Assembly: GCA_038858525.1 (NCBI GenBank) | Contig: JAWCFL010000021.1 | Span: 731 to 32,730 of the forward strand | Reading direction: 5' to 3' | Length of the DNA stretch: 32,000 nucleotides | Source of the DNA: Candidatus Jordarchaeales archaeon | GTDB taxonomy: Archaea; Asgardarchaeota; Jordiarchaeia; Jordiarchaeales; Freyrarchaeaceae | Part shown: positions 4,522-30,456 of the stretch, piece by piece | How the letters are laid out: the number at the start of each line of letters is the position of its first letter | How positions within the stretch are numbered: the stretch's first letter is position 1 | Notes under the pieces: model-generated | Seen by the model: only the letters and a program-made list of their open reading frames with translations | Told to the model about the DNA's origin: nothing | Database searches by the model: none | Position numbers and translations under genes: made by a program

Positions 4522-4542
4522 AAAGCGAAAGATTTTTATTAA
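4522..4542 (+). promoter_or_regulatory. BRE/TATA promoter upstream of the candidate structured RNA
   Basis: AAAGCGAAAGA followed by TTTTTATTAA, ending about 21 nt before the GC-rich 5' end at 4563-4564. Confidence 0.55.
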
Positions 4543-4562
4543 GAAATTCTCCTATGAAAGAT

Positions 4563-4687
4563 GGGGTGGGCGGATGATGGCGCGAAAACCCCAGAACTAT
4601 TTCTGTTTCGTGTGGTTTTATCCCCCCTCCCCCTCACTGCAGAAATAGACAAAATGGGGTTGTGAAACCGCCCGCCCACCCGAAACA
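4563..4687 (+). ncRNA. Candidate structured non-coding RNA of unknown family
   Basis: Nested stems 4564-4573/4672-4681 (10 bp), 4587-4593/4655-4661 (7 bp) and 4597-4605/4640-4648 (9 bp). GC island in an AT-rich spacer, with an upstream TATA and a downstream pyrimidine/T tract. Confidence 0.6.
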
Positions 4688-4735
4688 TTTTACAAGAACT
4701 TCTCCTCTTTTCTTCTTATAGAAGACCCTATCGGG

Positions 4736-5897
4736 ATGAGGTTCATGTGGCGTGCTATAAGGCCAGACTCCATCAGTGTTTGGAGCAATGAGCAGGTTCT
4801 AACTCGACTTAAGCGCTACTACGCTGTCCTTAAAGATGAAAAACCGGCTAAAATGCTTGTGGCCAGAAAAGTGGAAATTGAAGACGACCTCAACGTTCCA
4901 ACAGACAAACTCTGGCATCAACACCAAAGGGCTAGTGGAAAGTTCCGTAGCCTTCTCAAAGAAGTAGACCAAGGTAAAATTAATCTAAAAGATTTAGACA
5001 CTCCGAAAACCTCGTACTTAGACCTAAAATTGGAGCTTGCTAGGCGAATACTGGCAAGCTGCCACTTCTGTGAAAGAAGGTGCGGCGTGAACAGACTGGA
5101 AGGCAAACATGGCGCCTGTCAGCTTAACGCAAAGGCGTACGTCTCTTCAGCATTCCTTCACTTTGGAGAAGAAGCTCCACTAGTGCCATCAGGCACAAAC
5201 GCCCGAGTTTCTCTCTGGCGGTGCAATCTTCTTCAACATGTGCACGTTTAAGTGTGTCTTTTGTCAGAACCACGATATCTCTACGGCAATAGATGGCGTT
5301 GAGGTAAACGGAGAGAAACTAGCTAGTTTAGCTCGCCACCTTAAGAGAGAAGGCGCACGAAACATAAATTACGTCGGTGGAGACCCAACTCCTTCCGCTC
5401 ATGTAATCCTTGAAGCCATAAGAAATCTCGCGTATACGGAGACAAACATTACTCAGCTTTGGAACTCTAACTTTTACTGTAGCAAAGAGTTAATTATTCT
5501 TCTGCTTGACGTCATGGATTTCTGGCTTCCCGATTTTAAGTATGGAAACGACGAATGCGCTGAGCGTCTCTCCAAGGTTAAGCGTTACTTCGAAGTAGTA
5601 TCAAGAAATCATAAGCTGGCATATGATGAGACAGTTGTAGAAGGCACTTCAGGCATGATCATACGCCACTTGGTTCTGCCAGGACATTTAGATTGTTGCA
5701 CGAAGCCGATTTTGGAATGGATCGCTGAAAACACTCCGTTGGCTCTCGTGAATGTAATGTCGCAGTATCACCCTGACTACCTAGTGCCTCAAAACCCTGA
5801 TTACAGAGAAATAAATCGCAGAGTAACAGTTAAAGAAATGAAGGAAGCATACGAGTACGCAGACAAACTAGGTTTAGTATGGAGACCAGTCAGTTAA
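4736..5897 (+). CDS. PflX-like radical SAM protein, intron-split: join(4736..5198,5227..5897), 377 aa
   Basis: The two ORFs are halves of one protein. The spliced reading HFGEEAPLVPSGTIFFNMCTFKCVFCQNHDIS restores CxxxCxxC. N-terminal CHFCERRCGVNR; C-terminal RHLVLPGH and NVMSQYHP. Confidence 0.88.
5199..5226 (+). other. 28-nt BHB intron in the radical SAM mRNA
   Basis: Central helix GCAC(5193-96)/GTGC(5221-24), bulges AAA(5197-99) and AAT(5225-27), intron stem CGCC/GGCG. Canonical cuts restore the frame. Confidence 0.88.
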
Positions 5898-30012: not shown

Positions 30013-30150
30013 AAAGCAACTATTAATTCTCATATTAAAGCTAAGCTCAACAGTAAGCACTTTATTAAAACTGTTTTCTAATTGTTGTGATTGACGCGGG
30101 GGGCGGGATTTGAACCCGCGCTCCCCGAAAGGGGAACTGGCTCTCAAGGC

Positions 30151-30179
30151 TTCCGCTCGGGACCCTACATGACCCCGAC
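30151..30179 (-). other. 29-nt tRNA intron at position 29/30
   Basis: GCGC-TGG-[8-bp stem]-GCGG-AAG. Canonical cuts rebuild a perfect 5-bp anticodon stem. Confidence 0.85.
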
Positions 30180-30189
30180 CAGCGCCGTT

Positions 30190-30200
30190 TTACGTTTTAT
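30190..30200 (-). other. About 11-nt D-loop tRNA intron (BHL-like)
   Basis: GCGG-ACA-TAAA-ACGT-AAA. Removal leaves GCC-AAGCGGACAAC-GGC. Exact boundaries uncertain. Confidence 0.6.
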
Positions 30201-30456
30201 GTCCGCTTGGCTACCCCCGCTCAACTTCAAACATCCCTATTTCTCTCACTTGTTTAATCTCCTTTTTCTCCTTTAAATTTTTAATCAACTAGATGTATCG
30301 CGTTTTAACGTTTTGAACTTTAACTCTTACCGGTACTTTTACTGGTATCCGGGCAAACATATATTTAAATAATCTATATACTTGTTATTTCTGAACTTTC
30401 TCGGTTAATCCTTTGCTAAGGCGCTTCTATTATGATTATGATGGAGGTGTTAAAGC

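Follow-up and report, generated by a model that had tools for sequence, protein, structure and literature searches.

Does the intergenic segment at 4563-4691 on the plus strand encode an RNA of its own, and if so, which part of the transcript is the mature product? The segment lies within a 32,000-nt stretch of a Candidatus Jordarchaeales genome (the window, meaning the whole of that stretch). It occupies the third place in the order pheT - isochorismatase - RNA - radical SAM, which was common to all five genomes of the family. The initial annotation had described an orphan, promoter-driven structured RNA at this locus, and the strings that it named were found in place: a clamp at 4564-4573/4672-4681, an ACCCCA/UGGGGU stem, a 9-bp CUAUUUCUG/CAGAAAUAG stem, and a C-rich loop at 4620-4635. 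The reading favored here, with a probability of roughly 0.55, is that of an independent small RNA (sRNA) gene whose transcript would be cut at a bulge-helix-bulge (BHB) motif to release its inner part as a circle, with the loop as the working part. The features of the gene are as follows.

4522-4543, plus strand: archaeal promoter, with a purine-rich BRE (4525-4531) followed by a TATA box (4532-4541)
4563-4586, plus strand: leader (5' "exon"), with the 5' strands of P1 (4564-4572), P2 (4576-4580), and P3 (4581-4584) and the first two bases of bulge 1
4587-4666, plus strand: predicted excised RNA of 80 nt, with P4 (4588-4593/4655-4660), P5 (4597-4605/4640-4648), an apical loop of 34 nt (4606-4639), and the strand of P3 on the 3' side
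4617-4637, plus strand: invariant U/C-rich loop motif of 21 nt, identical in the five family genomes
4667-4682, plus strand: trailer (3' "exon"), comprising the final base of bulge 2 together with the 3' strands of P2 (4668-4672) and P1 (4673-4681)
4683-4691, plus strand: 3' tail ending in a T4 run (4688-4691), a likely transcription stop, conserved within the genus

The plus strand of 4560-4690 was predicted to fold into one long rod with a minimum free energy (MFE) of -53 kcal/mol and a z score of -4.6 to -4.9, and its fold energy was reached by none of 200 dinucleotide shuffles. A weaker fold was obtained for the minus strand of the hairpin (z = -2.9). For all five homologues, the z scores ranged from -4.1 to -5.7, with the C-rich loop unpaired in each predicted fold. 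The covariance model (CM) scored 154 bits on the plus strand vs 23 bits on the minus strand, and the G.U pairs in the hairpin likewise favor the plus strand. The BRE and TATA box that had been claimed were present at 4525-4541. The center of the TATA box lies ∼26 nt upstream of G4563, and transcription is therefore expected to start at about that base. In an alignment of the five family genomes, the promoter (4522-4543) was near-identical, and it was similar to the tRNA promoters of the same genome. Oligo-T is an established archaeal terminator; the T4 run is a short and weak one, and read-through is possible. The hairpin was found to be single-copy in its own 2.09-Mb, 93%-complete genome, and on this ground it is not taken for a copied rRNA trailer.

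A common layout was derived from the five family sequences, comprising a terminal clamp (P1), P2 of 5 to 8 bp, P3 of 4 bp, P4 of 5 to 6 bp, P5 of 9 bp, and a 34-nt apical loop. Pairing was found in 94% of the cells of the model-fitted alignment, which leans towards the model. Covariation across relatives, which had been suggested as a check, was evident among the five homologues: 13 of 33 pairs had changed on both sides, compared with 4.4 +/- 1.5 in shuffles and 1 to 3 in slid-partner controls. The compensatory changes in P1 to P3 were visible by eye as well. P2 reads GAUGG/CCGCC, AGUGG/CCACU, GACGG/UCGUC, and GUCGA/UCGAC in four species, P1 of the second genus is unrelated in sequence with its pairing kept, and the outer helix showed covariation in four of its five pairs. 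The fold, the conserved promoter, and the covariation in five genomes bear out the original description of an independent, promoter-driven structured RNA. It is thus considered highly probable that 4563-4691 on the plus strand is a real, conserved, and independently transcribed noncoding RNA gene.

One species (genome G002, L133:1501-1631) had lost P5 and gained an extra UCCCCCC unit. Its loop measured 55 nt, and its BHB was recovered only via a one-base register slip.

The distribution of the RNA was narrow. It was detected in all five genomes of the family, which span two genera, by BLAST and the CM built here, and exact matches to the loop motif identified the relatives as Candidatus Jordarchaeia/Jordarchaeum metagenome-assembled genomes. 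Searches of 150 Asgard genomes with BLAST and the CM gave no copy outside the five, and the CM search of 150 Asgard genomes together with a 16-mer scan of 400 yielded nothing credible outside the order. In a metagenome scan with a 17-mer, at least 120 loci were obtained; among those listed, the only RNA-like flanks belonged to an identical copy of a genome already included, and the rest look like chance matches. As far as these searches reach, the RNA family is confined to one Asgard order, the Jordarchaeales.

Within the gene, conservation was distributed very unevenly. Among the four species that keep P5, 64 of 80 columns of the excised part were invariant, compared with 7 of 25 in the leader and 3 of 15 in the trailer. 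Between the two genera, the corresponding values were 70/80 vs 10/24 and 5/18. The sharp change in conservation coincides with the predicted cuts, from 80% invariant inside to 20 to 28% in the leader and trailer. Since the leader and trailer are free in sequence and yet paired, they appear to be constrained only to pair, like a processing stem, whereas the inner part, which is constrained in sequence, behaves like a mature RNA.

The BHB in the window consists of a central helix of CGCG (4581-4584) and UGUG (4661-4664), and two AAA bulges, one separating P3 from P4 on the 5' strand (4585-4587) and the other separating P2 from P3 on the 3' strand (4665-4667). The junction had previously been drawn one base off, as GCGC/GUGA with a G.A mismatch; the motif itself proved real, and a strict finder placed a 3-4-3 BHB at the homologous position in all five copies. 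The central helices of the homologues were CGCG/UGUG, CACA/UGUG, CGCA/UGUG, and CGCA/UGCG, with GCAA/UUGU in the most divergent species, where the register has slipped by one base and the 3-4-3 spacing is kept. Bulge sequences varied among the five copies, and bulge length was 3 nt in every one. The inner flanking helix measured 5 to 6 bp in all copies and the outer one 3 to 8 contiguous bp; in the window, the outer helix comprises 3 bp, then an A.C mismatch in P2, and then 1 bp.

The handedness of the motif was also correct. The 5' strand runs from outer helix to central helix, bulge, and inner helix, and the 3' strand from inner helix to central helix, bulge, and outer helix, as judged against the canonical geometry of tRNA introns at 37/38, a reference that was checked on two BHBs of the same genome. 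The same handedness was seen in the 16S processing stem and the radical-SAM mRNA intron of this genome, and the finder gave no match at this site on the reverse complement. Known EndA substrates are cut after the second bulge base. Here the finder predicts cuts between 4586 and 4587 and between 4666 and 4667, which would release 80 nt, and the homologous excised pieces in the relatives measure 80, 74, 77, and 74 nt. The initial annotation had proposed that 4586-4667, a piece of 82 nt, is released as a circle. Its boundaries give way to 4587-4666, while release of the inner part, probably in circular form, would still be the best reading, given the conserved BHB, two EndA proteins, and RtcB.

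When the 165-nt region was shuffled by mononucleotides, 3.6% of the shuffles contained a BHB of equal quality. The motif alone is weak evidence, and its weight comes from its preservation at the homologous position in all five copies. A genome-wide BHB scan showed no excess over the mirror-image control (8794 mirror-image vs 9085 true motifs, or 219 vs 211 at stricter settings), and because mirror-image motifs are as frequent as true ones, BHB geometry alone is not diagnostic. In two of the five copies, the MFE fold preferred a 2x2 or 3x3 internal loop over the staggered bulges. The five homologues are close kin (76 to 88% identical), so that their common bulge sizes are partly inherited.

Two EndA paralogues (PF01974; catalytic domains at contigs C3:81835-82089 and C43:5978-6235) are encoded in the genome, consistent with a heteromeric enzyme, together with one RtcB. 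The 16S processing stem (contig C12:3810-5660, outside the window) has an outer CAAACCA/UGGUUUG helix, and a central CGCA/UGCG helix, with GAA and GUU as its bulges. For the radical-SAM mRNA intron, which lies ∼500 nt downstream of the RNA, the BHB is GCAC/GUGC with bulges AAA and AAU, and excision would restore the reading frame; this genome appears to use BHB splicing in mRNA, too. With introns allowed, ARAGORN reported no more than 11 tRNA genes for this genome, which is 93% complete, mostly as odd intron calls (for example, window 30095-30220). The tRNA genes of this genome are probably heavily interrupted and missed by standard detection, and heavily interrupted tRNA genes have been reported for Asgard archaea (bioRxiv 10.64898/2026.10.13.758758). 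The 23S rRNA was not found in this assembly with RF02540, though relatives have one.

The proposed processing would run as follows. A primary transcript of ∼125 to 130 nt, reaching from G4563 to the T run, would fold into the rod, in which the leader and trailer pair as P1 and P2 and, together with P3 and P4, form a canonical BHB. EndA would then cut after the second base of each 3-nt bulge (between 4586 and 4587 and between 4666 and 4667), and RtcB would join the ends. The predicted product is a circular RNA of 80 nt shaped like a dumbbell, in which P4 and P5 lie between a junction loop of 7 nt and a single-stranded loop of 34 nt, and the by-product would be a discarded leader-trailer hairpin of ∼49 nt. 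The U/C-rich loop would act by pairing with G-rich, Shine-Dalgarno (SD)-like RNA or by binding a C-rich-RNA protein. For BHB cleavage of the transcript the balance of the evidence is favorable, and it is regarded as the probable event; that the excised piece would persist as a stable circle is a matter of even odds.

The alternative that survives best is that the whole ∼125-nt rod is the mature form of a linear stem-loop sRNA, its bulges being helix irregularities or a protein-binding site that EndA does not cut. It gains from the genome-wide parity between BHB-like motifs and their mirror images, from the two homologues whose MFE folds lack the exact BHB, and from the homologue in the sister family, a plain stem-loop without a BHB that is described below. 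It accounts less well for the exact 3-4-3 spacing in all five copies, which is maintained by compensatory changes and across the one-base register slip, or for a leader and trailer free in sequence around an inner part that is 80 to 88% invariant, as for a processing stem. The archaeal EndA, moreover, recognizes the BHB shape whatever its context (PMC4731332). A linear mature form is accordingly judged unlikely, although it carries more weight than any of the other alternatives taken up below.

The comparison with the sister family bears on both readings. By a mismatch-tolerant scan for the loop motif, a related RNA was found in five of six sister-family genomes, with the 16-nt loop core exact in these, at the following loci.

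L189:1458-1551, plus strand: sister-family RNA
L190:1467-1561, minus strand: sister-family RNA
L199:1459-1553, plus strand: sister-family RNA
L193:1459-1553, plus strand: sister-family RNA
L194:1469-1561, minus strand: sister-family RNA

The sister-family RNA has its own BRE/TATA and a covarying, GC-rich terminal stem of 13 bp, whose ends resemble P1. The stem carries a pyrimidine loop of ∼55 nt, in which two further AUCC-type repeats precede the terminal 16-nt C-rich core. No BHB was found in it. It is neighbored by an HNH gene in one genome and by a ferredoxin-like gene in another, while the sister-family radical SAM gene has a different upstream region without such an RNA. As the sister family keeps the loop on a plain stem, without a BHB and beside other neighbors, the loop appears to be the functional core. 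By the same comparison, the RNA is a free-standing gene rather than a radical SAM leader, and the BHB rod is an addition specific to this Jordarchaeia family. For the RNA family at large, excision is dispensable.

The G+C content of the rRNA was 62% in this family vs 56% in the sister family, and members of this family come from hot springs (PMC9723677). It has been proposed that thermophiles close noncoding RNAs covalently for stability, whereas mesophiles rely on base pairing (PMC3326292), and the higher rRNA G+C content and hot-spring origin fit this proposal. In its most specific form, the favored reading would be that of a dedicated noncoding host gene whose sole functional product is the BHB-excised circle of ∼80 nt, with the loop sequestering G-rich or SD sequences or a C-binding protein; the thermophilic lineage would have closed an older linear sRNA that is still linear in the mesophilic sister family. 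This full account is put forward tentatively, as somewhat less probable than its processing steps.

The position of the RNA directly before the radical SAM gene had suggested a leader of that gene. The hairpin would then belong to the 5' UTR of a radical SAM mRNA driven by the promoter at 4522-4543, either as an element acting in cis or as a BHB intron that is removed. The order of the four genes in all five family genomes, the weak T4 stop, and the BHB intron already present in the radical SAM gene all speak for such an arrangement. The start region of that gene is read as follows.

4716-4747, plus strand: TATA-like box (4716-4723) and likely true start of the radical SAM gene (start codon 4745, the second ATG, encoding MW...)

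Relatives align only from residue 3-4 of the open reading frame that starts at 4736, and the sister-family radical SAM genes have the same MW... start. The TATA-like box lies 22 to 29 nt upstream of 4745, a spacing that suggests a separate promoter and a leaderless mRNA for the radical SAM gene. This putative second promoter counts against a shared transcript, as does a loop without notable complementarity to the radical SAM gene; an invariant 21-nt loop would be unexpected in a mere spacer. In the sister family, the RNA adjoins unrelated genes (HNH or ferredoxin), and the radical SAM genes there have no such RNA upstream. The idea of a leader is dropped on the last ground, and a 5'-UTR element in general is considered improbable.

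A further possibility is that the locus is a disrupted or permuted form of a known RNA, such as tRNA, SRP RNA, RNase P RNA, or a C/D or H/ACA guide. The initial annotation had recognized no known class, and the searches agree with it. An Rfam search of the hairpin gave no match at the gathering threshold and only one chance match of 14.9 bits at E <= 10, so that not even at E = 10 was a credible match obtained, and ARAGORN found no tRNA in it. By inspection, the hairpin has no D arm or anticodon arm, and inspection together with the family alignment revealed no conserved C/D box, K-turn, or pseudouridylation pocket. A C-box-like AUGAUGG string is present in this genome only among the family copies and has no D box. 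As for a Y RNA, no PF05731 match for a Ro60/TROVE partner was found in the 93%-complete genome. What lends the known-RNA explanation some color is that tRNA genes in this genome escape standard detection and that the ligated junction hairpin (5 to 6 bp with a 7-nt loop) is loosely T-arm-like. In tRNA genes, however, the exons are more conserved than the introns; here the leader and trailer together measure no more than about 40 nt and show the lowest conservation of all parts, and the inner part offers neither of the missing arms. SRP RNA and RNase P RNA were both located elsewhere in the genome. A known RNA in disguise is therefore regarded as very improbable, and the locus defines a new RNA family, without an Rfam or tRNA match.

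Compared with the Rfam model, the SRP RNA (C5:28479-28831 = L182:1501-1853) carries insertions of 23 nt and 21 nt in two of its hairpin loops; a simple finder detected no clear BHB at these inserts. The RNase P RNA (C36:12606-12992 = L183:1501-1887) is about 100 nt longer than its model.

The least probable explanation, a palindrome acting in DNA as a protein-binding or recombination site, has the long intergenic inverted repeat in its favor and is set against G.U pairs that become C.A on the other strand, strand-asymmetric fold and CM scores, a promoter conserved at a fixed distance, and an unpaired loop that is the most conserved part.

The loop is taken to be the working part of the RNA. 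The loop seed is invariant and holds CCUCC, and the genome uses SD motifs of the GGAGG/GGUGA type, which together make an anti-SD-like antisense role plausible. Perfect complements of the loop (up to 14 nt) were located inside coding regions and were not conserved as targets. Near-complements with up to three mismatches were only about 1.6-fold more frequent in the five genomes than matches to a reversed-pattern control. The mRNAs of the five genomes yielded no extended target of the loop that was conserved, its complementarity to 16S and 23S rRNA amounted to at most 9-mers, and nothing notable was seen in the neighboring genes, including radical SAM. An anti-SD or antisense role is rated as less likely than not. 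Speculatively, the repeated units of a U tract and a C run would equally suit an Sm-like or KH-type protein.

To our knowledge, very few RNAs other than tRNA and rRNA are documented to undergo BHB processing, namely, cbf5 mRNA, the permuted SRP RNA, and the sRNA from the tRNA-Trp intron. Of these, the SRP RNA of Thermoproteus, encoded by a permuted gene, comes nearest as a precedent. In that case, the leader and trailer form a BHB that is cut in vitro by the heteromeric endonuclease, and the RNA is circular in vivo (PMC4731332). Thermoproteus has a splicing endonuclease of the (alpha-beta)2 type and record numbers of tRNA introns, and RtcB has been proposed to circularize the SRP RNA (PMC4731332). 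The two cases share a gene that is neither tRNA nor rRNA, a transcript of its own, and a short leader and trailer paired into a BHB. In Thermoproteus, however, a permuted universal RNA of ∼300 nt is repaired by circularization, while the gene described here is unpermuted, its RNA measures ∼80 nt, and its mesophilic relatives use a plain stem.

The stems of archaeal pre-16S and pre-23S rRNA are similar in that a leader-trailer helix carries a 3-4-3 BHB and the excised product is circular; the 16S stem of this genome has the same geometry as the small RNA and nearly the same central helix. The rRNA circles are transient and are reopened, whereas the excised piece would here be the end product. 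The C/D box sRNA of the tRNA-Trp intron in Haloferax, Halobacterium, and Pyrococcus is a functional sRNA that is excised as an intron at a BHB and accumulates as a circle (cited in PMC12558985). The exons around that intron form a functional tRNA; in the present gene, the "exons" amount to a 40-nt stem that is poorly conserved and has no evident function, and the RNA lacks C/D boxes.

With regard to the loop, RsaE/RoxS of Firmicutes and sRNA162/sRNA41 of Methanosarcina mazei resemble the present RNA in having a promoter of their own, a stable stem, and exposed C-rich stretches with complementarity to the SD (PMC5419742, PMC3510493). The C run of the present RNA is much longer (6 + 5 C), and the similarity is a resemblance, not homology. 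We know of no BHB or circle processing for RsaE/RoxS or sRNA162/sRNA41. The RNA is set apart from the known BHB-processed RNAs as a small RNA of a new family, with "exons" that lack an evident function and with a sister form that has no BHB.

Asgard archaea are the archaeal phylum closest to eukaryotes. If the model is true, the locus would be a gene that exists solely to pass a small RNA through the tRNA-splicing machinery. The two sister families offer a natural comparison, a plain stem vs a BHB rod with the same loop, in which the idea of circularization in thermophiles can be tested, and the unusually long invariant C-rich loop provides a clear handle for finding the target or protein partner of the RNA.
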